Shown here in pieces: positions 28,744 to 63,428 of a stretch of DNA of 64,000 nt. The translations under genes were made by a program, and so were the position numbers. The stretch comes from Deltaproteobacteria bacterium (lineage in GTDB: Bacteria; Desulfobacterota; Desulfobaccia; Desulfobaccales; 0-14-0-80-60-11): assembly GCA_016875015.1 (NCBI GenBank), contig VGSJ01000005.1, positions 848 through 64,847 of the forward strand, written 5' to 3'. The first letter of the stretch is position 1. Every line of letters begins with the position of its first letter. The notes beneath the pieces were generated by a model that did not search any database, was not told the DNA's origin, and saw only the letters and a program-made list of their open reading frames with translations.

Positions 28744-28831
28744 GCCTGGGTGGCGGAACGGGTAGACGCAAGGGACTTAAAATCCCTCGGGGTGTGACCC
28801 CGTGCCGGTTCGAGTCCGGCCCCAGGCACCA
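28744..28831 (+). tRNA. tRNA-Leu (anticodon TAA), integration target of the island
   Basis: 88 nt. Acceptor GCCTGGG/CCCAGGC, long variable arm, anticodon loop CTTAAAA (TAA at 28778-28780), T arm CCGGTTCGAGTCCGG, encoded CCA. Confidence 0.9.
28773..28831 (+). repeat. attL: 3' part of tRNA-Leu, direct repeat partner of 63371-63428
   Basis: GGACTTAAAATCCCTCGGGG(tgtga)CCCCGTGCCGGTTCGAGTCCGGCCCCAGGCACCA is identical to the right copy except for the variable-arm loop (tgtga versus ttcg). Confidence 0.85.
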
Positions 28832-33160: not shown

Positions 33161-33318
33161 GAGACCTCCTGACCGGATGACAGCAGCGCGGGTCGGCCGG
33201 GGAAATAGAGGTGGGGATAAGCGATGCCCTGAAAACAAGTATAACGACCACCGGACCAGCCGCATTTCTGAGCGAAGGTTCCGGGTCCCACTCTATGCAA
33301 TTCGAATCTCTCCCCGCT

Positions 33319-34305
33319 TTAAATTTTCTGGTTCTTCGATGGCACATCGAACTCAGCAAACGGTAATAACCACGTGGGACCTGCGGCTATTCTGATTCCA
33401 TCCGATTGGTAGCCAGCTTTATGGAAAGCGTCCGCCTCTTTGAGGCACAACTTCCTGGCATCGCCCCACTGTTCATGAGTTAGGGGCTCGAGAATGAGAG
33501 GATGAATGCCAACTTCAAGGTCAAGCTCCTTGATCGGCAGCAGAACCGCTTCATGGACCATCTTCTCAAAATATGGTGATTGGGAACGGAGGAGCTCGAG
33601 CACCGGCTGATAGTAGTGGCGCCACATGCCTTCATCGAGAGTCACTTCGATGGGGTGTTTTGGTTTATCTTTCGGCGGGTCTGGGTCTCTCCAGAAAAAT
33701 TGCAGGACGTCATTGCGAAAATAGGTGATGCAGCCAATATAAAAGCGGGGCGCCACTCCATTGACACTGACAACCCGTTGTGCCTGCTGCTTCGCTTTGG
33801 CTTTTGGGTCGTTACCCGGGATGCTTATGCGTCCTTTGGCTTCAAGCGCCACCCATTCCTGAGAGCTGGTTTCTGCAATTAGATCAGGACGAGAACGGCC
33901 TGTGAGGACCGGGTTAAGCTGAGGGCGAAATACGTCCAGGTGCATTGCCCACGGGGCATCGAGACATTTCCAGGAAAACAGTTTGCAGAGTACCATGCCG
34001 AGGAAGTAGTTTACGGCACCTTTCTCAGATGGATCGAGGGTTTTTGCCGCATCGGTCCGGCGCAGCCGGCGAGCAGTTTGACCACGTTGCTCCAGGGCCA
34101 TCCGCACCAGGGACCAGCGGAATAATGCTTCGTACATTGAAGCCGTACCATGCCTGAAAACATACTGGCGGTTAGGGCGTCCAACAGTCACGGCGGCCCA
34201 GAGCAACTCGTCCCAGCTTGTTGAGAGCACAGCATTGCCATTGGATACTGGACTGGCCGGAGGCGGATCGAACCCTTCAGACCGGTAATCAATTTCAATC
34301 GGCAT
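33319..34305 (-). CDS. Predicted PD-(D/E)xK nuclease-fold protein
   Basis: SRPDLIAETSSQEWVALEAKGR supplies a D...E-x-K arrangement, preceded by an acidic helix (DPSEKG). It overlaps the methylase gene end by 11 nt. Confidence 0.5.
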   Translation of the reverse strand: MPIEIDYRSEGFDPPPASPVSNGNAVLSTSWDELLWAAVTVGRPNRQYVFRHGTASMYEALFRWSLVRMALEQRGQTARRLRRTDAAKTLDPSEKGAVNYFLGMVLCKLFSWKCLDAPWAMHLDVFRPQLNPVLTGRSRPDLIAETSSQEWVALEAKGRISIPGNDPKAKAKQQAQRVVSVNGVAPRFYIGCITYFRNDVLQFFWRDPDPPKDKPKHPIEVTLDEGMWRHYYQPVLELLRSQSPYFEKMVHEAVLLPIKELDLEVGIHPLILEPLTHEQWGDARKLCLKEADAFHKAGYQSDGIRIAAGPTWLLPFAEFDVPSKNQKI

Positions 34306-37300: not shown

Positions 37301-38479
37301 AGTAGAGTTCGGGTCCCAGAGAAAGCTGCCCAGAATCGGCAAGGCCAGATGCTCTCTGACAGCAGCGAAGTTGGCATCGCCAGACAGCGCCCCCACCAGG
37401 AGCTGGAACTGCCGCCAGAGGTCGCTGTGGCGGCTCCCCTTGATGTGGGAGGCCAGGTCACGGAGGCGCCCGGTGCTGTAATGGGCGGCATAGCGTTCCC
37501 GAGCGAGTCGGGCAGCCTCCGACCCATCCCGCGGGTGAAGCAAAGCCAGCCCCTCGATGGTGCGATCCTCGGCCACAAATAGGAAGATCAAGCGGTAGAC
37601 GACACGCAAGAGCTGGCCATGAAAATCCGTGAGCGAGGTTTCCCCGCTTCGCAACCTCTCGCGCAAGGCCAGGTTTTTCGAGTGGCTGGTGAAGCCTTCC
37701 CCCAAAATGCGCAAAGCCTGTTCCACCCCTTGGCGCAGATCGCCCAGGGCGCGAGTACCTTGTTCCTCGGCGAGCTTGGTCCACTGCTCCAGCCAGCAGG
37801 TCTCCGGGCGGTCGCCCTCCCGTGGAGCAAAGCGCGTGGCGTGGGCCATGAGCCAGAACAAAACGAAATCGGAATAGACCTCCCCACTGAACATGGCGGC
37901 CAGGTCGAACTCCAGGAAGGACTGACGGGAAAGAGCCTGATTATCGCGCAGGATGCGAAAGGTCAGGCCATTGGAGACGATGGCCCAGAGATGTCTGGGG
38001 CTGCGGTTCAAAAACTCCTGAACCAGACCGTGGGGATTGACCGCGGCGGCCCCGCGCACTCCTGCGGCCTTGCGGTCGAGGCTCAGACCACAGCCGAGTA
38101 GGTGCACCGGTACGGGACCAAAGAAGCGGCTGATGGCATAGGTGCGACCGCCGATTTCGGGGCCGGCAGTGGTGGGGAGCATACCGAAGGCCAACTCGCG
38201 CAGCAGGGGGAGATTCCACTTGTCATTGGTGAGGCCGGTCCCCACTTCACCCTCGGAAAGGCTGGCAGATGTGGCCTGGAACTCTGCCCAGTGTTTACGA
38301 AGACGATTCCATGACTGGGTGATGACCTCGTTCAGGCGCTCACCTGGCGGCAAGCCGTAATCTTCGGGCCCCGTGCCGGGTAGCTTTTCTTTGGGGTCAA
38401 GCACATGCCGGAGCAGATCGGGCGGCAGGAGTCCCCCTTCGGAGCGGATGGTCTGGAACTCATTGCTTCGACGGGCCAT
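34295..38479 (-). CDS. drmMI: Very large N6-adenine DNA methyltransferase (Eco57I/PglX/DrmMI-like)
   Basis: 1394 aa. SAM-binding motif [14 protein letters not shown] and catalytic motif [11 protein letters not shown] (NPPW). It starts 2 nt after the SNF2 gene stop. Confidence 0.75.
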
Positions 38480-38481
38480 GG

Positions 38482-41310: not shown

Positions 41311-44300
41311 TTAACTGGCCTCCCGAAGATGTCAGGATGGCGGAGGAAGATCTCGATCCAGTTTGCCATGTGGTGGAAGCGGATAACGATGTACCCCATC
41401 TCCATCAACCTCTGTGTAATGGTCTCGTCCTCGCGGAGTTGGGCCGGCTCATCATGCGGCGGTCCGTCGATATAGATGGCGGCAGCATGTTCACGATAGA
41501 AGAAGTCGGGACGGGTGGCGCAGGATTCGATCAGATACTGAGCCTCACTCGGAGGTCGGAGCACGAGGTCGTCCAAGAGGTCAAGCCAGCGCTTCTCTAA
41601 CTGACTGTCGCACCGCTTGCGTAGCGCGGCCATTCTTTCGGTACGGGAGCCAGCACCGCCCGCAGGGCGGCATACAGAGGAAGCCAGGTCGACTAACAAG
41701 TTGCGAATGAGATGGCGGTCGAGGTCTTTATGATCCGGCTGGTTGCCGTAATCGAGAAGGCACTCATAACACCCCTTGCCGCAGGTCTGTATGGCTTTGT
41801 CTTCCAGCGTATGGGGGTCAAAGTGACAGATATCCAAAGCAGCCCGGGCCAGCAGCGGCAACACGGTGGGGTCTTCAGCAATTTGGCGCAGTACGCCGGC
41901 GCCGCCTTCGGATGCCTCATAAAAGAGAATTTCCCGACGGTCTTGGGGTGAAGGCATCGGTTCGCACGAGAGTTCCCGAGGCTCAAGCTGGAAATGCTTT
42001 TGGATGGCCTCCTTGAACGCGGCCTGCAGGCTCGCCATCTCCGGACCCGAACGGGGTGGTTCGAATTGCATCACCAGAGCGTTCTTGGTGTCCCTTACAT
42101 AAGGCACCACGCGCTGGATCCGCCCTTGGGCGGTGGCATCGTCAGAGTCCTCTTCGTCTGCCTGGTTGCGCGACCAATAGCCCCTTTCCAGATCAAGATT
42201 GAACCCGGGAGGCTGATTGCCCCTCTGATTGGCCCAACCAAGGTTGATGCGGTAGAGGTCAGTGGCGTCGCCGTAGCTGAGGCGCAAAGCAAGGTCATCG
42301 CCGCAGTACACTTCCGCGTCTTTGCGGTCCAGCATACCACCGATTTCCGGGAATCGATAGGAAGTGACGAGTTTGTAGCCGAACCGCTGCCTTTCCTCTT
42401 CATCGCAGGTAATACGCTGGGCAAGTTTGAGGCTGACATTCTGCAAATGAACCAGATTATCGATTGTAGCAGATCCGTCCAGGGCATCGCCGCAGCGGTC
42501 GCAAATCTCGGTGAGGTTGGTTCCCTGCTCTAAATGGGCATAACCACATTTTAGGCAACGCTTCATCGTGGCGGTCACCAAATCGTGGGTCGCTTCGATG
42601 TCGTCAGTCCCGAAGTCGAGATTGACTTTGTAAACCCGGTAACGGGCTCCTTCGTGGTAGATCAAGGCGCGGGGGCCAAACTCGGAGATCGCCAGGAAAC
42701 GGGGGCGGGAGACGAACTCATCGCGGCTCTTACGTTGGCGGCGACCAGGTACATAAGCTGAAAGGGGCAGGCGCGGAAAATTATAACCTGGCAGAAACCC
42801 CTCAGCCGCGAAATAGCGGTAGGAATAGAAGTCGCCTTCATACATACCCTCGGCTTCGGTAAGCAAGCGGATCTGGCTCTCCGCCTGGGCGCGCAAGCGC
42901 CTGGACTGATTGCGCTCGCCCTCTGGTCGTGCATGGTCGCCGATGATCCTGTGATGCAACTCTCGCTGGCGGAGGGCAGCACGATAGAGGCTACGCCAGC
43001 GTTCGCAAGAATCATCAAAAGAACGCTCAATCTGGTCGAGGATTTCTTGGGTCCAGTTTTCGTGAAACCAAGCTGCTGATGACAGTTCGTTGAGGATACT
43101 GCTGACAAGTTGGTTGGCTTTGGAAAGCGCCCCAGCGCGGTGAGTCGGATTCCTTAGTTCCCGGGCAATTGTGTCTTTGACGGGGAGCGGAAGCCTTCCA
43201 TTGGAATGGGTGAGGTCAAGCACCGTGGCAAGTGTTTTACCCAGGTCCGGCTTGGCTACTTCCATCCAGACGGCGTGGACATGGGAGCGCACCAGATCCC
43301 GGTTGCGGATATCGATACGCGGCGGGGCCACCGAACCCGCAACCATATGGTTCGGCTGGCGAAAATAATACTGATCGTGAGGGCTGCGGCCAGCGCAATA
43401 GGTGTAGACCAGGGCCGGCTGGCCACCACGTCCGGCCCGCCCGCTCCTCTGGGCATAATTGGCCGGCGTCGGGGGGACGTTGCGCAGATTGACGAGGTTT
43501 AATTGGGCGATATCCACTCCCAATTCCATCGTCGGTGAGCAGAAAAGGAGGGGCAAATCGCCATTGCGAAAGCGTTCTTCGCGCTCTTCCCGGTCTTCAG
43601 ATGCCACCTGGGCAGTATGTTCACGGGCTTCGAGGACGCATTTCAAATCAACGAAACTGCGGTAACATTCCACGAAATAGTGGTTGACCTCTTGTGGAAT
43701 CTCTCCCGCATCCAGGAGCCGGGTCCGGTCTAACGGGCGGGCAGCACCCTCTCCAGGCAACCAGCGCAGGGCGTCAGGATTGATCTGGTAACCGGGCACT
43801 TCACCACTGCGTACCTGTTCGACAACCCCATAGCGTTTAAGAGCGAGAAATAGAAAACGGATGGCTCGATCAACATCATCGCGGCCCAAGCTCTGCCCCA
43901 GGGGTACGTGGGGGGCCAGTGATCGTTTTAGATAGCGCCCATATCCGCCGTAGGATGAAATAAAGAGCCCGATACGATCTTCTTGTCTCCGGGGCCTGGG
44001 ATAAGCGACAACGGACTTTACAAGCTCACGCGCATCCTCAAGATACCACACGGTATCTTCAAGGAGTCGCGGTTTAGTTTGCTCGACCAAGTCGAGCTGC
44101 CGCTGAGGGTCAAGGACATCGACCTTAACAGCCAGAGATCGGCGTAGAACATCTAGAAGGGTCCGGAGTAGTTCCTCACGTACTTCCGTAGGACAGGATC
44201 GCAACGTTGCGGGTACCTCAACGAACTCTTCGGTTTCTCGGTTGAATCGAACTGAGAATCCGGCTTCCCAAAGCTCGGTCTCGGCAAGTAGCCCATCCTC

Positions 44301-46562
44301 TCCTCTCAAACCATCATAGTCGAAGACAAGCAGACCGCAATCTTCAAGATTCGGCGCGGTCACGCGCCAACCACGCTGCAAGTCGCGATAGAGGTAGTAA
44401 TCGATGACGCGGCGAAGGGCATCATTAGTGGCGTGCTTCGCCGGGCCGCGCACCTCGGGATCGGCAGCGTATTCGTCGAACCGAAGCTCCATGGCTTCGA
44501 AGACACTGCGCGATAGATCGCCATGGACCAATCCCCGCGGACCTTTATTCCGGGCTGCTTTATAAAGTGCCGAACGCAAAAGGGACACTTGAGCAAAATC
44601 GTTGAAGTGGCCGGCCTGCAATGAAGCGTCCTGCCGGTTGTCAGTAAAACTTAGGAGCTTGCGAGCCTCAGGGGTGAGGTCACGGTCGCCTTGCAGCTCG
44701 ATGAGCGACCGGACTGCCATGATCGTAGTGGCGGTGCTGCGGTTGTCGACACCAAGGGTTGCCAATTTCGGGCGCTCGGAGCGCTGGGTCTTGGTGTAAG
44801 CGACCCCGCATGAGGGATGGAGACAAAACAGAAAGTTCCGGCGGATCAGCGCTGCTGGGATGCCATGCTCTTGGGACATTAAATGGCCCCGGGTGTCGAT
44901 AAAAACAGGCTCGGGGAGATCACGGCGGGCATCAGGTCGTATACGTTCCTCGCCTTGCGGTGTGGTCTCCTTCATAAACGCAGGCAAGCGCTCCAGCACT
45001 TCTGGACCATCAAGCAGTGGCCATGGTGCGGATTCGGACACATAGAGGTATGCATCGCCGCTGCCGTCATCACCTTCCTCACGGCGGTCCTCTCTGGGTA
45101 ACAGGGCTGTGCCGTGCTCATCGGTGACCGCCCTCACGCGGTAGTAGGCAGTACCGCATTGCCGGCAAAAAACTAGGGGGAATAGGGGCTTGTGGGGCTC
45201 ACCGGGTTTGGCGACCTTCTTAGACATCTCGAGGTGACGTTCAGCCTCGGGCTCAATGGTTGCCCACACCGTGTCGCCGCGGGTAAAGAATTGATGGAGG
45301 CGAAACGCAAAGATGGGGAAACGGCTGGACTCGCTTCGACGCAGTTCACACCCCTTGAGCAGAAAACGGCGCAGCACCGCGGCGCAACGTGCTTGGTCAG
45401 TTGAAGTAATCTGCTCAAGTTCCTCCGCGGCACTACCCTCACCCTGTAAGCGCCGGGGTTCCTGACGGACCAGTCCTCCGGTATCCGCTTCAGCCCGTAC
45501 GCCGAAGGTGGATTCAATCCAGGAAGCCAACGGATGGGTACGGAAAACATCATAGCTATCCGGTGGAGGTGCACCTGTGTCGACGGTGTCGAAAAGTTTT
45601 TGGATAACCAGTTTGTCACCAAAATCCATTTCTGGTGTAGCACGCTCGAGAGTTTCTTCGACAACTTGAGAGGTATCGAATGGGATGCCAAATAGTGTCT
45701 GGGCGACCTTCGCCACCTCGGCTTTTTGTTCTTCGGAGGATCCTCCGCTGACCATCGTGGCTGATGTGCCGATGCAAATGATGTTGTGGCCGCCGAAGGC
45801 TAGACGACAGCGCCGGATCAGAAGAGCGACATCCGCTCCCTGGCGTCCCCGGTAGGTGTGGAGTTCATCAAAAACAAGGAAACGCAATCCCTGGGCAGAC
45901 CGGACCAACTCCCGATCCTCTCTGCGGGTGAGCAGCAACTCTAGCATCATATAGTTGGTGAGTAGGATGTCAGGTGGATTACTGCGGATCGCCTCCCGCT
46001 CGGCACCCTTTTCTTGCCCGGTATAACGGGCAAAGCTGACGGGGGGCTTTCCTTCCGGGTACCCCTTCTCAAGAAACTTTTTGAGTTCTTCATCCTGGCT
46101 GTTGGCCAGGGCGTTCATCGGATAAACAACGATAGCCTGGATGCCCTGACCCGACCCATTCCGTAGAACGTGGTCAACGATAGGAACGATATAGGTCAGG
46201 CTCTTCCCCGACCCCGTGCCGCTGGTAAGCACATAGGACTTGCCTACTTTTGCCTTGAGGATCGCCTCCCGCTGATGGGTGTGGAGCAGGAGCTGCTTTC
46301 CGGTGTGGTCGGTATCGGATTTGTCGATCCTAAAAATCCTGGCGCACTCGGTATGAAGCGTACCTTCGGCCACCATTTCATCGATCGTGCCTCCAGGCAG
46401 GAAGGTAGGATTGAGTTGAAGGAGAGGCTCTGGCCAAAACGCTCCTGCATCCAGATTTAGGTTCACCATGTCCGAAATACGGGGGTCGGCGATTTTGATG
46501 AAGCTACGCGTGTAATTTGCGTAGTCGCCAACAAGACGATCCCGGAGATCGAAAACGTTCAT
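41307..46562 (-). CDS. 1751-aa DExH helicase with DUF1998/MrfA-type Cys clusters and a C-terminal DUF559/Vsr-like endonuclease-fold domain (fused DrmA+DrmB-like)
   Basis: LTSGTGSGKSL (Walker A), LVFDELHTYRG (DExH), YAQRSGRAGRGGQ (motif VI). Cys clusters CLKCGYAH..CDRCGD and CGKGCYECLLDYGNQ. C-terminus RPDFFYREHAAAIYIDGPPHDEPAQLREDETITQRLMEMGYIVIRFHH. Confidence 0.75.
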   Translation of the reverse strand: MNVFDLRDRLVGDYANYTRSFIKIADPRISDMVNLNLDAGAFWPEPLLQLNPTFLPGGTIDEMVAEGTLHTECARIFRIDKSDTDHTGKQLLLHTHQREAILKAKVGKSYVLTSGTGSGKSLTYIVPIVDHVLRNGSGQGIQAIVVYPMNALANSQDEELKKFLEKGYPEGKPPVSFARYTGQEKGAEREAIRSNPPDILLTNYMMLELLLTRREDRELVRSAQGLRFLVFDELHTYRGRQGADVALLIRRCRLAFGGHNIICIGTSATMVSGGSSEEQKAEVAKVAQTLFGIPFDTSQVVEETLERATPEMDFGDKLVIQKLFDTVDTGAPPPDSYDVFRTHPLASWIESTFGVRAEADTGGLVRQEPRRLQGEGSAAEELEQITSTDQARCAAVLRRFLLKGCELRRSESSRFPIFAFRLHQFFTRGDTVWATIEPEAERHLEMSKKVAKPGEPHKPLFPLVFCRQCGTAYYRVRAVTDEHGTALLPREDRREEGDDGSGDAYLYVSESAPWPLLDGPEVLERLPAFMKETTPQGEERIRPDARRDLPEPVFIDTRGHLMSQEHGIPAALIRRNFLFCLHPSCGVAYTKTQRSERPKLATLGVDNRSTATTIMAVRSLIELQGDRDLTPEARKLLSFTDNRQDASLQAGHFNDFAQVSLLRSALYKAARNKGPRGLVHGDLSRSVFEAMELRFDEYAADPEVRGPAKHATNDALRRVIDYYLYRDLQRGWRVTAPNLEDCGLLVFDYDGLRGEDGLLAETELWEAGFSVRFNRETEEFVEVPATLRSCPTEVREELLRTLLDVLRRSLAVKVDVLDPQRQLDLVEQTKPRLLEDTVWYLEDARELVKSVVAYPRPRRQEDRIGLFISSYGGYGRYLKRSLAPHVPLGQSLGRDDVDRAIRFLFLALKRYGVVEQVRSGEVPGYQINPDALRWLPGEGAARPLDRTRLLDAGEIPQEVNHYFVECYRSFVDLKCVLEAREHTAQVASEDREEREERFRNGDLPLLFCSPTMELGVDIAQLNLVNLRNVPPTPANYAQRSGRAGRGGQPALVYTYCAGRSPHDQYYFRQPNHMVAGSVAPPRIDIRNRDLVRSHVHAVWMEVAKPDLGKTLATVLDLTHSNGRLPLPVKDTIARELRNPTHRAGALSKANQLVSSILNELSSAAWFHENWTQEILDQIERSFDDSCERWRSLYRAALRQRELHHRIIGDHARPEGERNQSRRLRAQAESQIRLLTEAEGMYEGDFYSYRYFAAEGFLPGYNFPRLPLSAYVPGRRQRKSRDEFVSRPRFLAISEFGPRALIYHEGARYRVYKVNLDFGTDDIEATHDLVTATMKRCLKCGYAHLEQGTNLTEICDRCGDALDGSATIDNLVHLQNVSLKLAQRITCDEEERQRFGYKLVTSYRFPEIGGMLDRKDAEVYCGDDLALRLSYGDATDLYRINLGWANQRGNQPPGFNLDLERGYWSRNQADEEDSDDATAQGRIQRVVPYVRDTKNALVMQFEPPRSGPEMASLQAAFKEAIQKHFQLEPRELSCEPMPSPQDRREILFYEASEGGAGVLRQIAEDPTVLPLLARAALDICHFDPHTLEDKAIQTCGKGCYECLLDYGNQPDHKDLDRHLIRNLLVDLASSVCRPAGGAGSRTERMAALRKRCDSQLEKRWLDLLDDLVLRPPSEAQYLIESCATRPDFFYREHAAAIYIDGPPHDEPAQLREDETITQRLMEMGYIVIRFHHMANWIEIFLRHPDIFGRPVK

Positions 46563-48622: not shown

Positions 48623-50233
48623 ATGAACATCAATTATGACAAGCTCAAGAAGGTTATCGAAGTCTACGCCGAGCCCTGGTGGGCAGGAGAAGTTGAGTCA
48701 AAATGGCCTTGGCGTAAAGGTGGGGGGGAAATTCACGTTCAGGAAAGAGTGCTAAAGAAGGCCGCTCCCTATCTTACAGAGGATTCCTTGCGGAAAGACC
48801 CCAAAGATAGCGTAATGAGTGCCTTGAAAACCCACTTTAACTTACTCTCCCAGTTTGAATTCATGTTTGCCAAGACCTTTATCGACCAGGTTTACGGCGA
48901 TGAATTACGGGACCGGGTCCTGGACCTTCTGTACGGTCCCGAAGACCTGGGAGCCAGATTAAGGAAGTTTCTTAAATGGGCCAAGCTTGAACCGGTACCT
49001 GATAAGAAGATAAAGAAGGGCATGAGCGCCACCGTAGCAAGTTACCTTTTAGCAATGTCGAACCCCCGGCAATATCCCTTTTGCAAGCCAGTCGCTTACG
49101 ACAGGGCAGTGACGGAACTCCTTGGCAAAGACGCAGTCCGGCGAGATTCTGTAGAGAGAATCCTTCACTGCCAAGAGGTCTATTCGGCAGTTCTCGATTT
49201 TCTTGAAAGAGAACACGGTCTTGTTGATGGCAACCTTCTGGATGTTCATTCAATGTTATTTTGTTGCCAAGAAAAGGATAAGGACGGAATTTCCGGTTGG
49301 GACAAAGTTGGCAAACCACCGGTTGGTCCAGAACCACCTATTCCTCCACAAACTTATAATCCCTTTTTCGACCTGCTCTTTGAAAGGCATAATCTGGTGT
49401 TTTACGGTCCCCCCGGCACCGGCAAGACCCGGGATGCCCTCCTTTTAGGTAGATGGTGGAAAAATACGTACGGGCCTGAAACTGTCAGTCAGATAACCTT
49501 TCATCCCTCTTACTCCTACGAAGATTTTATCGAAGGATTCCGCCCCACCGAAGATGGCTCCGGGTTTGAATTGAGAAGCGGCATTTTTAAAAAGCTTTGC
49601 CAGAAGGCCGCCGCTGCTCCGGACAAGAAATTTCTGATCATTATTGATGAGATAAACCGAGGTGATGTGGCCCGCATCTTGGGGGAACTCATAACTCTCC
49701 TGGAAGGGGACAAACGCGGCGAGCTTCACCAGGCAATGCTCCAACAGTCGGGAGAGGCTTTCTTCGTTCCTGAAAATTTATATGTTCTGGGAACCATGAA
49801 TACAGCCGACAAGAGCATCAGCCTCATGGACCTGGCCATCAGGAGACGCTTTCTCTTTCATTATTTTCCCCCCGACCCTGACGTGCTGGACGAAGGGAGA
49901 GACTTCTTGGATGAAGTTGAGAATATCAGGCTGTCCCGCCTGCTCATCGGTTTGAATCAAAGGCTGATGGATGTGGGAGTGGACCGCGATCGGGTTTTGG
50001 GGCATTCCTTCTTCATGATTTCCCGAAAAACCGCGGACCCGCTCCTTACCTTAAAGAATCGCTTCCGATACGAAATTGTGCCACTGGTAGAAGAGTACTG
50101 TTATGCCGATCGCTCCCTTATGGCCAGGGTTTTGGGCGATCTGGTGGAAGTCAATGGTGCGGTAAATGCGGACGTCCTCGAAGACAACGAAAGATTTCTA
50201 TCGGTCCTCCAGGTCTTGAGTGATATTGAATGA
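48623..50233 (+). CDS. mcrB: McrB-like AAA+ (GTPase-type) restriction subunit with an unrecognised ~250-aa N-terminal domain
   Basis: VFYGPPGTGKT, IIIDEINRGDVARILGELITLLE, LGTMNTADKSISLMDLAIRRRF. Confidence 0.85.
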   Translation: MNINYDKLKKVIEVYAEPWWAGEVESKWPWRKGGGEIHVQERVLKKAAPYLTEDSLRKDPKDSVMSALKTHFNLLSQFEFMFAKTFIDQVYGDELRDRVLDLLYGPEDLGARLRKFLKWAKLEPVPDKKIKKGMSATVASYLLAMSNPRQYPFCKPVAYDRAVTELLGKDAVRRDSVERILHCQEVYSAVLDFLEREHGLVDGNLLDVHSMLFCCQEKDKDGISGWDKVGKPPVGPEPPIPPQTYNPFFDLLFERHNLVFYGPPGTGKTRDALLLGRWWKNTYGPETVSQITFHPSYSYEDFIEGFRPTEDGSGFELRSGIFKKLCQKAAAAPDKKFLIIIDEINRGDVARILGELITLLEGDKRGELHQAMLQQSGEAFFVPENLYVLGTMNTADKSISLMDLAIRRRFLFHYFPPDPDVLDEGRDFLDEVENIRLSRLLIGLNQRLMDVGVDRDRVLGHSFFMISRKTADPLLTLKNRFRYEIVPLVEEYCYADRSLMARVLGDLVEVNGAVNADVLEDNERFLSVLQVLSDIE

Positions 50234-51606
50234 TCAACCCAAAGAACCAGGTTCGAAAAACGATTGACCTCGCCGAGTATGGTGAAATTACCATCCCTGC
50301 GGCTGATCTATCCTTTCTTTCGGAACAAAAATTTCAGACGGTTTGTGAAACTCTTAGTTCCCTGGTGAACATATCCTTTGGCTGGGGAGGGGGCCATCTC
50401 TCTATAAAAGCCGGATCGAATGTGGGGGTGATCCAAACACACGGCCTGCGGGTTCAAGTCCGTCCAGCCCTTTCGGTCAAAGAGATGGTGGTTCTCATTC
50501 GTTACGCCCTGTCCGGCAAGGTTCCACTTCAACATCTTAGGTCTTTTGCGGACGTTGATTGGGGAACCGGATTTGAAGATGTGCTCTGCATGATGCTGTG
50601 TGAAGAGTCCAGGGAGATCCTCAGGATAGGGCTTTCCTGCCGCTATGAGGAAAGACGTGAGCCTCTAACTTTTCTGAGGGGAAGGCCACTCTGGGAGAAG
50701 AACTTTCCCTGGCGCGGAGGCAAGACCAGGGAGTTGACTTGCCGCTATCACCGGCTCACCTATGACAATATAGATAACCGCTTGCTTCTCGTTGGCCTGA
50801 GGTCTGCCGGTCATCTCGCCACTTCTGAGGCCGTCAAAAGGAAAGTATTCCAGTTTGTAAAGACTATTGGCGATCTTGCTTCAGAGACCACTCCGGAGCC
50901 CGGGCAATTCGATCAGGCCGAACAAAGATACAACCGCTTAACCGAGCATTATCGCGCCGCCCATGGTCTGTGCAGAATGCTGATCTACAGCCTTCGTCCG
51001 GAATCACTTTATGAAAGTGGAAAACACCAAATATTTGGGATCGTTTTGGACATGGCCTGGCTTTTCGAGAAATTCATCGAACAGCTTATGGCAGAGACCT
51101 TGAAACCGGCCGGATTTAACATCGAATCCCAGGCGCCAGACCGGAAGGCCTTGCTCGATGCCGAAGGTTACCCCTATGTTTCGGTCCGCCCAGACCTGAT
51201 AATTTCTCAATCCCGGACAGTATGCGGAGTCATCGACGCCAAATATAAGCGATACTGGCCGACGGCCACAAACAGCTTTGCCCCTATGCGAAAAATAGCA
51301 AACGAAGACATCTACCAGCTCTTCTTCTATCAACAACGCCTACAAAGAAAGTTCAATTTACCAACCCCGCCCGTCGCTGTCATCGCCGCCCCCCTGCCCG
51401 AAGAAGATGAGCGGGGCGATCAGGCGGTTATTGCCGAAAGATTCAAACGAGTTGTTTGGCAGGCTGGAGCAGAGAAAGCTGGTGATGTGAGGCTCATATT
51501 AATCCCAATGACAAAATTCCTCAGGTTGATTATTCAAAGAGAAAAGCCAGGTGACATTGTGGAGAAAATCGGCCTTAATCGTATAAGGGATTTATTTCGT
51601 GATTAA
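50230..51606 (+). CDS. mcrC: McrC-like nuclease subunit
   Basis: ATGA overlap with mcrB. PD-(D/E)xK motif VRPDLIISQSRTVCGVIDAKYKRY near the C-terminus. Confidence 0.8.
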   Translation: MINPKNQVRKTIDLAEYGEITIPAADLSFLSEQKFQTVCETLSSLVNISFGWGGGHLSIKAGSNVGVIQTHGLRVQVRPALSVKEMVVLIRYALSGKVPLQHLRSFADVDWGTGFEDVLCMMLCEESREILRIGLSCRYEERREPLTFLRGRPLWEKNFPWRGGKTRELTCRYHRLTYDNIDNRLLLVGLRSAGHLATSEAVKRKVFQFVKTIGDLASETTPEPGQFDQAEQRYNRLTEHYRAAHGLCRMLIYSLRPESLYESGKHQIFGIVLDMAWLFEKFIEQLMAETLKPAGFNIESQAPDRKALLDAEGYPYVSVRPDLIISQSRTVCGVIDAKYKRYWPTATNSFAPMRKIANEDIYQLFFYQQRLQRKFNLPTPPVAVIAAPLPEEDERGDQAVIAERFKRVVWQAGAEKAGDVRLILIPMTKFLRLIIQREKPGDIVEKIGLNRIRDLFRD

Positions 51607-54043: not shown

Positions 54044-54118
54044 GGATCGCGATCATTTTTCGGCAAAATCCAATATCCCGGTAATATGAATTAGAAGCCG
54101 ACTGGGAACCAACCAGGC

Positions 54119-55231
54119 ATGACAAATAATCGTGAGAGCTTCACGCACCTGATGGCTACCAGGCAGATTCGCCTCGAGCATGGCCACATCTTTGCCGTCG
54201 CCCCAGAGCCTCTGGGAACGGACTTTGACTTCGGCCGCATCGAGGGGATGATGTTGGGGCTGGCTATAGGGGATGCCTTGGGGAACACCACTGAATCATG
54301 GTTCCCCAGAGAACGCCGGGCCCGCTTCGGTGAAATCCGTGACTACCTCCCCAATCGTGAGACGGGCGAGAAAAAGGGCCTGCCCTCCGATGACACCCAA
54401 TTAGCCTTTTGGACGTTGGAGCAGATGCAGGAGGACCGCGGCTTTGTGCCGGAGCGGGTGGCGTCCAGGTTCTGCCGGGGCCGAATTTTTGGTATCGGCG
54501 GAACGGTCAGGGAGTTTATCCGCAATTACAAAAACGGTCTTCGCTGGTACCAATGCGGGCCTCAATCCGCAGGGAACGGCGCCTTGATGCGGATCGCTCC
54601 CATGTTAATCCCACACCTCAGGCCGACCACACCTGACCTTTGGATTGACACGGCTCTTTCTGCCATGATCACCCATAACGATTCCGGGTCGATTGCCGCC
54701 TGCCTGTCGTTCATCAACATCCTGTGGCATGTGCTCCGCATGGAGCAGCCACCAGATCCTGAATGGTGGCCCAGAACTTATATGGAGGTGGCCCGGGATT
54801 TGGAGCAGAGCACTTATAGGCCCAGAGGTGGAGCATACCCCAACTTCTGCGGCCATATTTGGCAATTTGTGGAAGAGACTGTAGAGGCCGGCTATGACCG
54901 CGGCCTCTCGGTCCTGGAAGCCGGTGAAATCTGGTACTCCGGCGCCTTCTTGTTGGAAACGGTGCCCTCGGTCCTGTTTATCCTTATGCGTCATGCCCAT
55001 GACCCCGAGGAGGCCATCATTCGGGCAGTGAATGACACCAAGGACAATGATACCATCGCCGCCATCGTGGGGGCTGCGGTGGGTGCCTTGCATGGCCGGC
55101 AGAAAATTCCTGAGCCCTGGCTTAAGAATCTGGCGGGGCGGACTGCGGAACAAGATGACGGCAGGATTTATGAACTGCTGAAGGCGGCCCAAAGCTTCTG
55201 GGGGCAGAGAGAGCACCTTTCGGGAATATAG
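54119..55231 (+). CDS. ADP-ribosylglycohydrolase family protein 1
   Basis: [54 protein letters not shown]. Confidence 0.8.
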
Positions 55232-56163
55232 TGATGGAAACAGTTGCCCGTTATCGGGGGAGCCTCCTGGGGTTGGCCGTAGGTGATGCCCTGGGTACCG
55301 CGTTGGAATTTCGAGTGCCCGGCACGTTCGCACCCATCGAAGACATGATCGGCGGGGGCCCGTTTCGGCTAAAGCCTGGTGAATGGACCGATGACACCTC
55401 CATGGCCCTCTGCCTGGCAGAGAGTTTAATCGATCGGCGGGGCTTTGACCCTGCCGACCAGATGGCCCGGTACCTTCAGTGGTATCGCCAGGGTTATCTG
55501 AGCAGCACTGGCGAATGTTTCGACATTGGCAATACAGTGAGATCCGCCCTGCTTTCCTATGAACGGACGGGTCAACCCTATGCCGGGTCCACCAACCCCA
55601 GGTCCGCGGGCAACGGCAGCACCATGCGTCTCGCGCCTGTGCCTCTGTTTTTCGCCCGACATCCCGAGCAAGCCATCCACCTATCCGGGGAAAGTTCCCG
55701 CACCACGCATGGCCTGCCGGTTTGCGTTGATGCTTGCAGGTATTTGGGAGCGTTGCTGGTGGGTGCGGTCAACGGGGCCGACAAAGAAGAACTCTTGAAG
55801 GAGCGCTTCAGCCCCGTCTCCGGCTACTGGGAGAGATATCCGCTGTCTCCCCCCATTGACGAGATTGCCCTGGGGTCCTTCAAGCGCCGCCAGCCGCCGG
55901 AAATCCATGGAAGCGGTTATGTGGTCCGTTCTCTGGAGGCGGCGCTTTGGGCTTTATACCACGGGACATCCTTTCGAGAGGGCTGCCTCATGGCGGTCAA
56001 TCTAGGTGATGACGCCGACACCACCGGAGCAGTCTATGGTCAGTTGGCGGGGGCTTTACTCGGGGAGGAAGGTATCCCGGTAAGATGGAGAATAAAACTC
56101 GCCAACCATGATCTTATTTGTTCCCTGGCTGAGGAAGTTTATGCTTTGAGCTTGAGTACTTGA
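55231..56163 (+). CDS. ADP-ribosylglycohydrolase family protein 2 (DraG-like)
   Basis: [59 protein letters not shown]. The start (GTG 55231 or ATG 55234) abuts the ARH1 stop. Confidence 0.85.
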
Positions 56164-56236
56164 CTGACACCGGTTTGCAGACCGCTCTCTTCTCTGCAAG
56201 AAGGTTCAACAGCGCTCCATAATCCCCGGACCAAAC

Positions 56237-57145
56237 CTAAATAACGTGGATCGATAAATCGAATTCCTTGTAGATCAGCCCCTCCTGGCTGGGCATGCGG
56301 CAGAGCATCTCCGACTCCCAGGTTTCCCGGGAGACCTTGCGTTTGGCGCTGGTGGCGTCCTCGACGGGATAAAAGCCGTCGGCTTCCTTGGCTCTTCCTT
56401 CACAGTCCTCCCACAGCTCGCAGGTCTTGCAGTCCCGGTCTTTGCATTTTTCCATGACGCAAAAAACGCACCATTTATAGACCCGGTAGCCGCTCTCCGC
56501 CGCTTCGGTGATCACCCGGTTCATCAGGCCGTAAGCCTTGTGCATGGTGGAGTAAATTTGCACTGAGGCCCTGATCCCCCTGGCCGACTTGGGTATCAGG
56601 AGGGCGGCCTCATATAGCTCGGGGGCCATTTCATCCACTTCGTCCAGCTTGAGCTTCTGGGGGTGCGGTCCCCGCACGCTTTTGCTGGAGGCGGTAAGAA
56701 TCTGGATATTGGAGCCGTTCACCAGGTGAGTGCGGGTGCGCAGGGCCTCCCCTTCCACCAGGTGCTGGAAGGGCGGAGTGAGGAAGCCTTTGATGTGCTC
56801 ATACATGCGGAGGCTCTGCTCGCCGGAGCCCCCCAGGATTTTGGTCTCGCAGCCCGCCTTGAACACCGAGTCCAACCAGGTCAGCAGGGCGCCGTTTAAG
56901 GTCTTCCCCCCGGAGCGGTTGGCCCAGCAGACGCAGTCCTGGACTTCTTCCAGGAAGGCGGCGGCCAGGTACTCGGCGGGTGGGGTATGGTGGGGGCAGA
57001 CCTTGGCCCGGGGAATCCTGAGCCCCCAGAAGGCCTCAATGAAGTCCAGGAGTTCCTCCGGGTCCTTAAAACCATGGGACCGGTAATGCTCCACCAACCT
57101 CAGGTTTTCCCGGCCATCCATCCTGCCGTGAGAAGAAGGCGACAT
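56237..57145 (-). CDS. Phage terminase large subunit, ATPase domain only (apparently truncated before the nuclease domain)
   Basis: Walker A-like WANRSGGKT and Walker B KLKLDEVDE. It ends ..SEMLCRMPSQEGLIYKEFDLSIHVI, where full-length TerL proteins continue into a nuclease domain. Confidence 0.6.
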   Translation of the reverse strand: MSPSSHGRMDGRENLRLVEHYRSHGFKDPEELLDFIEAFWGLRIPRAKVCPHHTPPAEYLAAAFLEEVQDCVCWANRSGGKTLNGALLTWLDSVFKAGCETKILGGSGEQSLRMYEHIKGFLTPPFQHLVEGEALRTRTHLVNGSNIQILTASSKSVRGPHPQKLKLDEVDEMAPELYEAALLIPKSARGIRASVQIYSTMHKAYGLMNRVITEAAESGYRVYKWCVFCVMEKCKDRDCKTCELWEDCEGRAKEADGFYPVEDATSAKRKVSRETWESEMLCRMPSQEGLIYKEFDLSIHVI

Positions 57146-57158
57146 CGCCGTTTTAAAA

Positions 57159-57626
57159 TCACAGTCCCAGATTTTTTTCTCCCTTGGCCCGGGCCTTCTT
57201 GAGCAGGGCCAGGTATTCTTTCCGGATTTCCGGGTCCTCGAAGGGCAGCCCTTCCTCCACCGCCAGGCGCTCCGGCACTTTGACCAGCACCCCCACCTCC
57301 TGGTAAAGCTGAACGAGCTTTTCGGTGGCCTTGAGCGCGGTATTCAGATACCCCACCTTGACGGCGGTGTTTTCTTCGCACAGGTGAAAATGCCGCATGG
57401 CCTTGGTGCGGATGCGTTCCAAGATTTTCACGGTTTCGCCGAGAATTTCATCGTGGTTCAGGTTCCGGGCGGTGCGGCTGAAGAGCTCCCGGGCCCGCCG
57501 CAGGTAATTCCAGATGCTGCGCTCGGTGACGCCATACATCTGGGCGATCTGGGGCACCTTCATGCCCAACACCTGGAGCTCCTTGACCTCCAGACAGCGC
57601 TCTTCCATCTCATCCCGCTTGGACAT
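57159..57626 (-). CDS. Terminase small-subunit-like HTH protein
   Basis: 155 aa. N-terminal HTH MKVPQIAQMYGVTERSIWNYLRRA. It lies immediately upstream of the terL-like gene. Confidence 0.5.
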   Translation of the reverse strand: MSKRDEMEERCLEVKELQVLGMKVPQIAQMYGVTERSIWNYLRRARELFSRTARNLNHDEILGETVKILERIRTKAMRHFHLCEENTAVKVGYLNTALKATEKLVQLYQEVGVLVKVPERLAVEEGLPFEDPEIRKEYLALLKKARAKGEKNLGL

Positions 57627-58114: not shown

Positions 58115-58423
58115 TCACTGATCACCCCTCGGCCTCTCTTTCAAACCGGGATAAAGCTCGGTTAGCAGGTGCCAGTCGCAACTCGCGCACAAATCCCTCC
58201 CCTCTGGGTCAGGGATGAACATCGCCCCTCCGCATTTTTGGCAATAACACCGCAGGAAGAACAACACCTCGTCCCTGCACTCTTTCACCAATTGCAGGAG
58301 AGGCCGCACTTGGCCGGGATCGGGTTGGCCCTGGCCTTCAAAACGCCAGCGCAGCCGCTCCCCCGCAGCTTCAAAGCGATAGCCCAGAGCCGTCAGTTTC
58401 ATCGCCGCTTCCCCGGGTTTCAT
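58115..58423 (-). CDS. Hypothetical protein with a C-terminal zinc ribbon
   Basis: CYCQKCGG...CASCDWH. 4-nt overlaps with both neighbouring genes. Confidence 0.5.
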   Translation of the reverse strand: MKPGEAAMKLTALGYRFEAAGERLRWRFEGQGQPDPGQVRPLLQLVKECRDEVLFFLRCYCQKCGGAMFIPDPEGRDLCASCDWHLLTELYPGLKERPRGDQ

Positions 58424-60960
58424 ATCTCGCCCTCCAGGAGGTCGTCCTCCGCCGATATAGAATATGTAGGGAATTTAGCGTCCGAAGCGTCCTTAGCGTC
58501 CATCTCCCCGATTTTCCTATCTTTATCCCTGGGCGCTTCTTTTTGCGAAGCGTCCGGGTGGGTGGCGGAAGCGTCCAAGTTGGGGGAAGCGTCCACGGAA
58601 GCGTCCGGCGGATTTACAGATTCCTCCTGCCCTTGGGCGCTGTGGGCGCTCCGGACGCTTTTTTCACTGCCCTTTCTAATTGTTATCTTCCGGTCGCCTG
58701 ATTTGGAAAATTCTACCTCCAGCCCCACCTTCCGGAGAAAGGTGGAAGCCCGCTTCAACCGGTTGGAGAGGATGTGGGCCGCTTTGGGCCAAACCTTGCT
58801 TCGCTTAGTGGATTCCGGGATGAGTGCCTCCAGAGCCTCCAGCAATACTGAGGCATTTCCTACCCAGGAATCCCTTTCAGCCATGAGTAGCCGAACAGCC
58901 ACCGCCACCTGGTCAGCTTCCAGGCTCTGCTCCACCACTGCACTGCGGTTGCCGGTATAGGCCTCCAGAAAACTTCCTGACGGCCACCCCAGAACAGGCT
59001 CGGCGGCTGTGACCCAGATGGCAAAGTCGGCCATGCGTGGCAGGGCGTCAAGGCGCACCTGATCATGCTTCGCTAGGCATCCAACTACCGCGTCAAAAAG
59101 GGCTCCCAAAATGCGGGGTCTGGCTTTCTCAAATTCTCGCCAGAAGGTCTTCTCTGGGAGCCTGTCTTCATCCTCTATTTGAGGGAGGTCGATAATTACG
59201 GCCCGGTCGGCCAAGTCTTGCTTGGTAACCAGCGAAGTGATGCCGTTAAGAACTATAGGGCGCATGGACTCGAAGAGACATTCCTCGACGTCGGTGTAGA
59301 GCTCTCTCGTTCCGAATCCCCCGCCGGTGGATAACCGGCAGAAGGCATCCGTCACCCAGTCCGGCAGGGTGCTCAAGTTATCAAAAGTGAGGCACCATGA
59401 GTTATTGGCGGCGATCATTAAATCCCGAACCTCTTTGGGGACGCTCCGCAGAGGCGCCGTGCTGGGATCAAGAAGTAATTTCAACAACCTGGCGGCCGTA
59501 GTCTTCGCTGCTCCCTGCTCACCCTGAAGCGCCAGTATGGGAAAGGGGCCCGGGGAGAAAGCGGCGATCAGGATGGCCACGAACAGGCGCCAACACCTCT
59601 CCGACTTGACATTTAAAAACCGCCGCAGTTCTTTTAGGCTGCCACCCCGCTGGGGGAGAGGCAACGCTGCCATCCCCTTGGAGCGGCGGAATTTCACCGG
59701 TGGGTTGGCAACTACGTGCCATCCTTGCGCGGTGATTTTTACCGCTTCCCAGGTGGGGGTGCCCAGGTCAACAAAGACAGCCTCCGGGGTGTGAGCCACT
59801 CGGACGTGAACCGACAATTCGGGGCCATCGAACAGGGCACGGGATTCCAGGACTCCCAGGGCATCCTGCAGGGCCTGGGCGTTGGGAGCCTTGTTTTTAA
59901 AGGTCTTGTAGAATCGCCCCCTCAACCAAAGGCGAAATCCCTTCGACCGCACCGGCCAAGTCTCCCGGTGATCATCGACCGGCACCGTTACATAAGCGGT
60001 CTTGTCGGGGGTGTGAAAAAACTCTGCGTCTGCGGCCAAGCCGATAAGGAGCTCGGACTGGGTGGGCTTGGCATCTCCGGTGACAGGCTGCTCCTGGTCT
60101 GCCGGTGAATTACACTCAGATGTCGACTCTATGAGAGCCAGTAGCTGCTCTTTGGTTCCACCGCGCTTGAGCCATTCGGAGATATCGCCTTTCTCGGGGA
60201 GGTCCGGGAGTTCCACCACCTTCACGGTCGCCGCGATGCCGTGAAGGTGCCGGGCCACGTCCTGGGCGTGTTTACGACCCGGCTCGTCGTTGTCGGGGAT
60301 GATGACGACCTGTTTATCCTTGAAGTGTTTATTGTAATCGGCCCGCCACTTTCCGGCGCCCTGAGGGTTGCAGGTGCTCGTTAGGCCAAACTCAACCAAG
60401 GTGTCGCAATCTTTCTCTCCCTCAGGGATAAGGACCATCTCGGCCTTGAGCACCTCCAACAACCGGTAGGGTACCAGGACCACACCGTCCAGGTTGTTGA
60501 CCCATCCACCCTTAGCGTCTGGCCGGCGTTGGAAGAAGCCCTTGGGATGAGTCCGGCAAACCTGAAATACCAGGACGCCATCTTCATCGCAGTAATCGTA
60601 GGTCTTAACAATTTGGGGTGCCGCCTTACCTTCCTTCTTTCCCCGCCGCCGACCGTTCCCCCTGGCATTCTCTATGCCCGCCTCCTGGGCCAGGATGTCG
60701 AGTGCCCCTTTAAAATCTGTGTCGTATTTTTTCCTGATGAAGGTGAAGACATCCCCCTTGGCGCTGCAAGCCTTGCAATTCCACAGGCCGGTCTTCAGGT
60801 TGAGTGATAGCGAGGCCTTGGTGTCTTTATGGAAGGGACACAGCCCCAGGGCCTGGTCGCCCCTTCCATTCTTCAACTCACCCAGCTCCTTGTGGTAGAG
60901 GGCTCGGATGTCGAGGTGGGCGAGGATTTCAGCCTTTAAATCCATAGTAATCTCGGCCAA
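58420..60960 (-). CDS. Primase-helicase (CHC2 zinc finger + Toprim + P-loop NTPase), P4-alpha-like architecture
   Basis: CPFHKDTKASLSLNLKTGLWNCKACSAKGDVFTF (CHC2), VLIPEGEKDCDTL and VVIIPDNDEPGRKHA (Toprim), LQGEQGAAKTTAARLL (Walker A-like). Confidence 0.8.
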   Translation of the reverse strand: MAEITMDLKAEILAHLDIRALYHKELGELKNGRGDQALGLCPFHKDTKASLSLNLKTGLWNCKACSAKGDVFTFIRKKYDTDFKGALDILAQEAGIENARGNGRRRGKKEGKAAPQIVKTYDYCDEDGVLVFQVCRTHPKGFFQRRPDAKGGWVNNLDGVVLVPYRLLEVLKAEMVLIPEGEKDCDTLVEFGLTSTCNPQGAGKWRADYNKHFKDKQVVIIPDNDEPGRKHAQDVARHLHGIAATVKVVELPDLPEKGDISEWLKRGGTKEQLLALIESTSECNSPADQEQPVTGDAKPTQSELLIGLAADAEFFHTPDKTAYVTVPVDDHRETWPVRSKGFRLWLRGRFYKTFKNKAPNAQALQDALGVLESRALFDGPELSVHVRVAHTPEAVFVDLGTPTWEAVKITAQGWHVVANPPVKFRRSKGMAALPLPQRGGSLKELRRFLNVKSERCWRLFVAILIAAFSPGPFPILALQGEQGAAKTTAARLLKLLLDPSTAPLRSVPKEVRDLMIAANNSWCLTFDNLSTLPDWVTDAFCRLSTGGGFGTRELYTDVEECLFESMRPIVLNGITSLVTKQDLADRAVIIDLPQIEDEDRLPEKTFWREFEKARPRILGALFDAVVGCLAKHDQVRLDALPRMADFAIWVTAAEPVLGWPSGSFLEAYTGNRSAVVEQSLEADQVAVAVRLLMAERDSWVGNASVLLEALEALIPESTKRSKVWPKAAHILSNRLKRASTFLRKVGLEVEFSKSGDRKITIRKGSEKSVRSAHSAQGQEESVNPPDASVDASPNLDASATHPDASQKEAPRDKDRKIGEMDAKDASDAKFPTYSISAEDDLLEGEI

Positions 60961-63370: not shown

Positions 63371-63428
63371 GGACTTAAAATCCCTCGGGGTTCGCCCCGT
63401 GCCGGTTCGAGTCCGGCCCCAGGCACCA
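63371..63428 (+). repeat. attR: displaced 3' fragment of tRNA-Leu
   Basis: A 58-nt copy of the tRNA from the anticodon stem to CCA with no 5' half. The flanking AATATCAA is also shared with the left copy. Confidence 0.85.

Follow-up and report, generated by a model that had tools for sequence, protein, structure and literature searches.

A predicted two-gene ADP-ribosylglycohydrolase cassette behind a McrBC-GmrSD-like operon on a tRNA-Leu island

A 64,000-nucleotide stretch of deltaproteobacterial DNA (NCBI GenBank assembly GCA_016875015.1, contig VGSJ01000005.1, positions 848 to 64,847 of the forward strand), here called the window and numbered from its first letter, carries two adjoining genes for predicted ADP-ribosylglycohydrolases (ARHs). 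They lie on an integrative island of ~34.6 kb (window 28744-63428), 75 bp downstream of a type IV restriction operon and on the same strand; a preliminary description, made from the sequence alone, had placed the tandem genes there, and the coordinates and Pfam confirm it. As set out below, the two genes form an independent, self-contained cassette, and the evidence does not support a dedicated partnership with the type IV operon. The genes are as follows.

54119-55231, + strand: ARH1, 370 aa, full-length match to Pfam PF03747 (E 7e-57; 193.7 bits against a cut-off of 26.2).
55231-56163, + strand: ARH2, 310 aa when read from GTG, full-length match to PF03747 (E 5e-83; 279.4 bits against 26.2).

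Both proteins score above the PF03747 gathering cut-off and contain the Glu that follows GDALG, the (S/T)DDT motif and the C-terminal DxDT motif. The ARH signature reported for these open reading frames (ORFs) is thus present in both, and the catalytic metal-site residues are kept on alignment. In ARH1 the motifs read GLAIGDALG...E59, S90-D91-D92-T93 and D309-N-D311-T312, all of them invariant in an alignment of 24 sequences (homologues at 60-86% identity), while the binuclear metal-site residues of ARH2 (E, TDDT and DADT) align to those of Tri1 and of the Thermus structure 2cwc. Judged by these metal-site motifs, both ORFs encode intact ADP-ribosylglycohydrolases. The AlphaFold2 (AF2) model of ARH1 (pLDDT 90.1, pTM 0.92) has the all-helical ARH fold, and Foldseek relates it with a probability of 1.00 to MJ1187, DraG, Tri1 and ARH3; its best structural matches, MJ1187, DraG, Lmo0067 and Tri1, are 21-25% identical in sequence. 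ARH2 aligns end to end with 2cwc (E 1e-76) and with Serratia Tri1 (6dre, E 2e-74), and matches DraG at E 5e-33.

The two enzymes probably differ in what they act on. Tri1 is a Serratia type VI secretion system (T6SS) immunity protein with ADP-ribosylarginine hydrolase activity, and DraG is the hydrolase that reactivates nitrogenase. The catalytic Asp of DraG, D97, is kept in ARH2 and in Tri1 (FDIGNT motif). By these resemblances ARH2 belongs to the DraG/Tri1 type, and removal of arginine-linked ADP-ribose is therefore its most likely activity, as a general arginine-ADP-ribose hydrolase. It is an orthologue of neither protein: the NCBIfam Tri1 model NF041672 scores ARH2 at 319.8 bits, short of the 490 required, and the DraG equivalog TIGR02662 gives the two ARHs 97 and 159 bits where 337 are needed. 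The match to NF041672 begins only at model position 67, and the N-terminal extension of Tri1 is thus absent from ARH2. In ARH1, when it is aligned to the structure of the DraG D97N variant, the position of the catalytic Asp is taken by G125 (window 54491), and Gly occupies it in ARH1 and all 23 aligned homologues. Because the equivalent of Asp97 is missing, ARH1 probably acts on a different linkage or substrate than DraG. ARH1 represents a large, strongly conserved and uncharacterised subfamily of cellular ARHs, with 4073 homologues at E<1e-10; at least 8000 are found for ARH2. Pfam detects no DNA-binding domain in ARH1 or ARH2, and neither has a match in PADLOC.

The two genes abut one another. 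In the preliminary description, the stop and start codons shared nucleotide 55231, which holds if ARH2 begins at its GTG but not if it begins where the public annotation puts it. There, the protein identical to ARH2 (P0121, 309 aa) is read from ATG 55234, 2 nt past the ARH1 stop, and this is likely the true start. The coupling of ARH1 to ARH2 is tight with either start, GTG 55231 or ATG 55234.

Upstream of the pair lies the restriction operon, which together with the junction and the downstream hairpin gives the following features.

48623-50233, + strand: McrB-like AAA+ GTPase (Pfam AAA_5; McrB_lid in the precomputed annotation).
50230-51606, + strand: McrC (PF10117, E 1e-40).
51599 (or 51626)-54043, + strand: GmrSD/BrxU-like type IV restriction protein (GmrSD_N/DUF262, E 2e-16).
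54044-54118, + strand: 75-bp junction between the GmrSD-like gene and ARH1, of which only about 18 bp before the ARH1 start are common to relatives.
56171-56184, + strand: weak terminator-like hairpin after ARH2.

The last gene of the operon had been called a DUF262/DUF1524 gene, and the DUF262 part of that assignment stands. DUF1524 is not detected by Pfam, as the C-terminal nuclease motif, a His-Me-like DHIHPQ...GNL...N, is too divergent for that model. BrxU (7p9k) is the sole solved relative of this protein (E 1e-8), and its closest plasmid homologue, from Variovorax, is a stand-alone gene. Scanning the + strand of the junction reveals no terminator-like site, in keeping with the earlier reading that no convincing terminator separates the GmrSD-like gene from ARH1, and no convincing promoter either; its folding energy is at the level of shuffled sequence (z = -0.15), and no Rfam match or regulatory RNA is found within 54044-54118. 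Just past the GmrSD stop codon lies a perfect 10-bp palindrome, GATCGCGATC (54045-54054), which is compatible with chance.

Comparison with related loci shows how much of this region travels together.

54100-56144, + strand: extent of the two-gene cassette by blastn (80-88% identity to the related loci L095, L086, L001, L096 and L087-90).

Homology to the relatives runs from 54100-54114, which is no more than 5-19 bp ahead of the first codon of ARH1, to 56132-56144. By these boundaries the transferred unit consists of the two ORFs and their ribosome-binding region, without a promoter. As this unit brings no promoter and the junction holds no terminator, read-through from the restriction operon is the simplest expression route, and the ARH pair is probably transcribed in this way. 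The transcription unit likely ends at the 56171-56184 hairpin, since the next gene is convergent. Flanking repeats and attC-like sites were considered as the cause of cassette mobility and rejected, as none was found; the only repeat is a 15-nt direct one in two copies (14/15 identical), at 54074-54088 in the junction and 56073-56087 near the 3′ end of ARH2, and it is compatible with chance.

The close ARH1 and ARH2 pair occurs at seven distinct loci with differing flanks, or at 15 loci when more distant ARH2-type pairs are included. In the closest relatives (78-89% identical) ARH1 and ARH2 are always adjacent, overlapping by 1-4 nt or separated by 26 nt, while their surroundings differ and contain no McrBC or GmrSD. 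The pair adjoins IS21/Mu-type transposases in L001, and a radical-SAM gene with genes for RNA-binding proteins in L002. In L086 its neighbours are a SNF2/ResIII helicase, a restriction endonuclease (REase) of the DUF3644-EC042_2821 type and a 1885-aa SF1-helicase-MTES_1575 REase, and in L087-90 they are a divergent MerR gene, ARPP-1, HigBA, an integrase and a D5-type primase. In L096 an HmaA-like SNF2+Helicase_C+NOV_C gene overlaps the ARH2 stop. Base composition separates the pair from its present neighbours as well. The McrB-McrC-GmrSD block is the compositional outlier of the island (GC 0.49-0.50; GC at third codon positions, GC3, 0.47-0.55), whereas the ARH pair (GC 0.58-0.59, GC3 0.64-0.69) resembles the remaining island (GC 0.57-0.60). 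Because the block differs in GC and GC3, the island is a mosaic, which suggests that the block was inserted separately. An obligate ARH/type IV restriction system was also considered and rejected: when 174 related loci were searched by tblastn for McrB, McrC and the GmrSD-like protein, the only matches were copies of the same island and one GmrSD_N gene (L049). A dedicated partnership between the pair and the type IV operon is not supported, because the pair has sharp boundaries and a base composition of its own, because its close relatives lack McrBC and GmrSD, and because the plasmid GmrSD homologue stands alone.

No partner toxin had been noticed in the island, and profile scans agree. With Pfam, NCBIfam, PADLOC and PHROGs, no member of the ADP-ribosyltransferase (ART), sirtuin, DarT or RES families is found among island ORFs of at least 100 aa or among the large ORFs of the host flanks, within the sensitivity of sequence profiles. 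The pair has no adjacent ART toxin gene of the kind that defines DarTG- or DraTG-like pairs. One candidate for a hidden ART, orf302, which lies convergent to ARH2, was rejected, as it is a terminase large-subunit ATPase-like protein. The window also contains no DraT, nif, T6SS or toxin genes, and no coupled phosphatase, Nudix/WYL regulator, ARPP-1 or chaperone.

To place the pair in its family, we gathered 80 ARH1 loci from species-representative genomes and 80 from metagenomes, which after deduplication left 154 distinct loci with 1.55 Mb of flank; neighbours were clustered, representatives were scanned with Pfam, and fractions were taken over the 107 loci whose flanks amount to at least 5 kb. 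The family has no single conserved neighbour except a second ARH, which lies near ARH1 in 31-32 loci at a median gap of 21 bp. Among the 100 loci with sufficient flank to assign a partner, 15 have an ARH2-type gene within 1.5 kb and 16 another ARH-family gene, while ARH1 is solo in 69. Recurrent neighbours of other kinds are SNF2 helicases (12 loci), AddA/RecB-like UvrD+PD-(D/E)XK helicase-nucleases (10), ARPP-1, the 'ARG and Rhodanese-Phosphatase-associated protein' (7, including the close relatives L087-90), WYL-WCX transcription factors (4; WYL regulators are seen in L007, L022, L074 and L151), VIT-vWA proteins (4), 2H phosphoesterases (4), ResIII/SWI2 helicases (3) and DSP/R-P phosphatases (3), with R-P phosphatases seen in the relatives L024, L056, L064 and L170. 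At least one such non-ARH neighbour is present in 40 of the 107 loci (37%), and a helicase and/or nuclease in 27. The gene neighbourhoods of the family are of the conflict-system type. For type IV restriction in particular the association is weak, as L049 is the one locus besides this island with a GmrSD_N gene.

Gene order is operonic in several of these loci. In L101 (1606-11154) it reads ERCC4, ARH1, ARH2, RecC, RecB, and in L170 an ARPP-1/R-P fusion is followed by ARH2, ARH1, a PDDEXK-RNaseH-SF1 helicase and a PLD protein. L136 and L138 have ARH2, a MORN-repeat protein, ARH1, AddB and AddA, while L049 (993-10374) has AddB, AddA, ARH1, ARH2 and the GmrSD_N gene (E 2e-20). Overall, helicase-nucleases of the AddAB/RecBCD type adjoin ARH1 homologues, with or without ARH2, in ~10 distinct loci from several phyla (among them L101, L049, L136/L138, L022, L107, L151 and L168), with some of the gene pairs overlapping. 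Fusions are found as well: ARH1-inositol-monophosphatase-ARH of ~1000 aa (L025 10001-13000; L026 199-3234), ARH1-ARH of 708 aa (L068 9986-12112), ARH1-DUF6508 of ~510 aa (P0049), and ARH2 with a phosphatase (P0232/P0234). The existence of the ARH1-phosphatase-ARH and ARH1-ARH fusions suggests that the two ARHs and a phosphatase may act in one pathway, and from those in L025 and L068 ARH1 and ARH2 would be predicted to interact. A cultured organism carries a homologous pair: on the Rhodothermus marinus plasmid pRHOM17201 (NC_015970.1, L175 8076-11150), an ARH2-type gene (62% identity) is followed by an ARH1-type gene (56%) and then by a convergent WYL regulator, and genes for a DNA methyltransferase, a nucleotidyltransferase and a DEAD-box helicase adjoin them. 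Macro-domain proteins, identified by eye, adjoin solo ARH1 in L010 (8537-9859) and L083 (3612-4250), one of them fused to a Ser/Thr kinase.

Among the means by which phages and plasmids take over a host or switch off its defences are ADP-ribosyltransferases, for example Alt, ModA and ModB of T4 or AcrIF11, and whether bacteria field dedicated erasers against viral enzymes of this kind is a question that bears on the present locus. Such erasers have been predicted computationally in a search for removers of ADP-ribose without a coupled ART or sirtuin (Iyer, Burroughs, Anantharaman and Aravind, 2022, Viruses 14:1977, section 3.8; PMC9503650). These widespread 'ARG-centric' systems combine their ADP-ribosylglycohydrolase with Nudix/WYL regulators, R-P and other phosphatases, chaperones including vWA proteins, Macro/NADAR proteins, REases with helicases, and ARPP; a phosphatase occurs in ~55% and a Nudix- or WYL-HTH (helix-turn-helix) regulator in ~42% of them, and they are proposed, on computational prediction only, to remove from host macromolecules the ADP-ribose placed there by viral ARTs (PMC9503650). 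Judged by its gene content, the neighbour repertoire around ARH1 is that of an ARG-centric system, with the ARH1 subfamily as its predicted ARG core.

Our preferred reading, which we hold tentatively and with somewhat less than even confidence, is that the pair is a minimal two-ARG variant of these predicted anti-ADP-ribosylation systems, spliced without a promoter behind McrBC-GmrSD on the tRNA-Leu island. ARH1 and ARH2 would then constitute a translationally coupled two-gene 'eraser' cassette without a partner writer, which strips from host macromolecules the ADP-ribose put on them by an outside ADP-ribosyltransferase. Candidates for the latter would be a phage Alt/Mod-like enzyme, an AcrIF11-like anti-defence enzyme or a toxin, and two erasers of differing specificity may make for a broader-spectrum module. 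Having presumably arrived without an upstream region of its own, the cassette sits where read-through from the McrB-McrC-GmrSD-like operon could express DNA restriction and ADP-ribose erasing together. Reversal of phage ADP-ribosylation was among the roles suggested from the sequence and is the best-supported of them; it is not a new idea, having already been predicted (PMC9503650).

Several observations weigh against this reading. The window lacks the typical regulators and phosphatases of ARG-centric systems, and the McrBC-GmrSD block and the ARH pair do not match in composition. GmrSD_N stands beside the pair in one other locus only (L049), which is within chance expectation. ARH1 retains 50-68% identity across phyla, unusually high for a conflict protein, and where it is solo it is often found amid housekeeping genes. 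AddA-like and SNF2 neighbours each occur in ~9-11% of loci against a rough expectation of 1-2% for genes present once to a few times in a genome, where the genomic background is assumed and not measured; the claim of enrichment rests on this assumption, since a control within loci is not significant (median gap 1.7 kb for helicases and nucleases versus 3.1 kb for other ORFs of at least 600 aa; Mann-Whitney p = 0.16, Fisher p = 0.37). The literature searched contains no experimental test of the ARH1 family, of ARG-centric systems or of ARH-based host defence, and PF03747 is absent from the defence-discovery literature searched.

Some of the same observations would be expected of housekeeping passengers, that is, of ARHs that clear endogenous conjugates or metabolites (O-acetyl-ADP-ribose, ADP-ribose-1''-phosphate, stray ADP-ribose on proteins) and whose position on the island is without meaning. 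High conservation and broad distribution, the predominance of solo ARH1 loci in unrelated contexts, the GC mismatch that marks the island as a mosaic, and the non-significant distance control all fit such a role, as do the oxidoreductase, radical-SAM and RNA-binding genes that adjoin close relatives. We nevertheless consider it unlikely, as ARPP-1, WYL, R-P phosphatase, 2H and helicase-nuclease neighbours occur in 37% of those loci that have 5 kb of flank or more, the close-clade cassette lies consistently on mobile elements or in defence islands, and the junction in the window is tight and has no terminator.

Equally unlikely, in our judgement, is that the pair serves as a dedicated partner of DNA-degrading defence (McrBC/GmrSD here; elsewhere AddAB/RecBCD, HmaA-like SNF2-nucleases, ERCC4, Mrr or PLD), either erasing ADP-ribose that phage transferases put on the nucleases, as 'anti-anti-defence', or freeing DNA or DNA ends of ADP-ribose for the nucleases to engage. 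The more specific proposal that the enzymes are directed at DNA, removing ADP-ribose or a ribosyl adduct from its bases or ends so that helicase-nucleases can load on or cut masked DNA, or so that ADP-ribosylated host DNA gets repaired, is slightly less probable again. The recurrent large neighbours, namely AddA/AddB, RecC/RecB, ERCC4, Mrr_N, PLD, SNF2+NOV_C, GmrSD_N and McrBC, are all DNA-acting, and several of them overlap the ARH genes (L022, L096, L101 and L170). ARH1 is without the Asp that DraG uses for hydrolysis of arginine-linked ADP-ribose, which suggests a non-arginine linkage, and ARH3 is able to remove phosphate-linked ADP-ribose from nucleic-acid ends. To set against this, neither protein has a detected DNA-binding domain, ARH2 is closest to hydrolases that act on protein arginine, and the distance control is not significant. 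We know of no phage DNA ADP-ribosylation that masks DNA from type IV enzymes. Furthermore, the vWA chaperones and phosphatases of related loci better fit protein or small-molecule substrates (PMC9503650).

Least probable among the explanations weighed here is that the pair provides orphan immunity or counter-defence, shielding the host or the island from ADP-ribosylating toxins (T6SS Tre1-like or Listeria ART-ARH-type effectors) or from ART-based defences (DarTG, CmdTAC), in the way that phage orphan antitoxins neutralise DarTG1. Those antitoxins are a precedent (PMC11825919), the similarity of ARH2 to Tri1 (E 2e-74) about equals its best solved match, and the structural neighbours of ARH1 include the immunity proteins Tri1 and Lmo0067. 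The close-clade pair, moreover, is always on mobile DNA (IS21/Mu transposases, integrases, primases, a plasmid). Nonetheless, ARH2 falls below the Tri1 cut-off and lacks the Tri1 N-terminal extension, T6SS and toxin genes are missing from the window, and the neighbours of the ARH1 family are host-defence-like and not toxin-like. Nor does ARH1 occur in phages: it has no match among 50,697 phage records, and a phage origin of ARH1 was rejected on this ground, whereas ARH2-type genes are found in jumbo phages at 42-47% identity. Because it is absent from these records, ARH1 looks like a host-side enzyme. Removal of adducts from DNA and orphan immunity had both been suggested before; both have less in their support than reversal of phage-inflicted ADP-ribosylation.

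The remaining features of the island around the pair are as follows.

28744-28831, + strand: tRNA-Leu(taa), attL, the integration site.
28866-30074, - strand: integrase gene.
34295-46562, - strand: DISARM-like three-gene operon.
56237-57145, - strand: orf302, the convergent neighbour of ARH2 (PHROGs TerL matches).
57159-57626: TerS-like small HTH protein, part of a satellite-like module.
58420-60960: CHC2-Toprim primase, part of the satellite-like module.
63395-63428, + strand: attR, a 34-bp direct repeat of the tRNA-Leu 3′ end, with its other copy at 28798-28831.

With its primase, TerS-like HTH protein and orf302, the core of the island has the look of a phage satellite. The resemblance of orf302 to a terminase large subunit is confined to the ATPase half; its homologues at 42-46% identity are proteins of ~500 aa with PF17289. 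The DISARM-like operon encodes a 1751-aa DruE/DrmA-like helicase with an MZB (DUF1998) domain, a 942-aa DpdE/DrmD-like SNF2 protein that the PADLOC DpdE model matches end to end (E 3e-238), and a 1394-aa DrmMI/Eco57I-like methyltransferase, and two unannotated ORFs (33319-34305 and 32600-33265) come after it.

For the question whether bacteria erase viral ADP-ribosylation, the locus offers a compact candidate for study, a 2-kb two-enzyme cassette beside type IV restriction genes with a homologous pair in the cultured Rhodothermus marinus. The survey indicates that a very widespread ARH subfamily forms the core of predicted ARG-centric systems, often paired with a DraG/Tri1-type ARH and with helicase-nucleases. 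The text of PMC9503650 makes no mention of McrB, McrC, GmrSD, DUF262, AddA or RecB, nor of the link to AddAB/RecBCD-type helicase-nucleases. Were the pair a dedicated nuclease partner after all, it would provide either the first case in which a natural eraser of bacteria rescues immunity from a viral ADP-ribosyltransferase or a first indication that ADP-ribose masks DNA.

Among known systems, type IV restriction islands (McrBC; GmrSD/BrxU) and HmaA-type defence share with the present case that such genes adjoin the pair, in the window and in L096. To our knowledge, none of the McrBC, GmrSD/BrxU and HmaA-type systems needs or includes an ADP-ribosyl hydrolase. The SNF2+Helicase_C+NOV_C architecture of HmaA is a validated defence against T4 (PMC11232893). 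For AcrIF11, a 2025 study showed only that human MacroD2 can take off the modification in lysate, and it reports that an endogenous eraser could not be identified (PMC12421852). The writer-eraser pairs DarTG and DraTG and the phage orphan antitoxins (PMC11825919) likewise rely, in conflicts, on enzymatic reversal of ADP-ribosylation. They differ from the pair in that the window has no writer gene, the fold is that of ARH and not macro/NADAR, the erasers are in tandem, and ARH1 is not found in phages. ARH2 has the same fold as Tri1 (6dre) and DraG (2woc), together with their binuclear-metal motifs and their catalytic Asp (FDIGNT). In contrast, ARH2 remains below both NCBIfam equivalog cut-offs and has no counterpart of the N-terminal extension by which Tri1 binds Tre1, the window provides no Tre1/T6SS, DraT or nif context, and ARH1 is only 21-25% identical, with Gly at the position of DraG D97. 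Compared with ARG-centric systems, the window version is minimal, with two paralogous ARGs and no phosphatase, Nudix/WYL regulator, chaperone or ARPP, and its nucleases are of the McrBC and GmrSD type, which PMC9503650 does not mention. What it has in common with these systems is an ARH-fold ARG without a coupled ART or sirtuin and with REase-type effectors (McrB, McrC and the GmrSD-like gene) directly upstream on the same strand; its ARH1 relatives carry the ARPP-1, WYL, R-P phosphatase, vWA, REase and helicase components.

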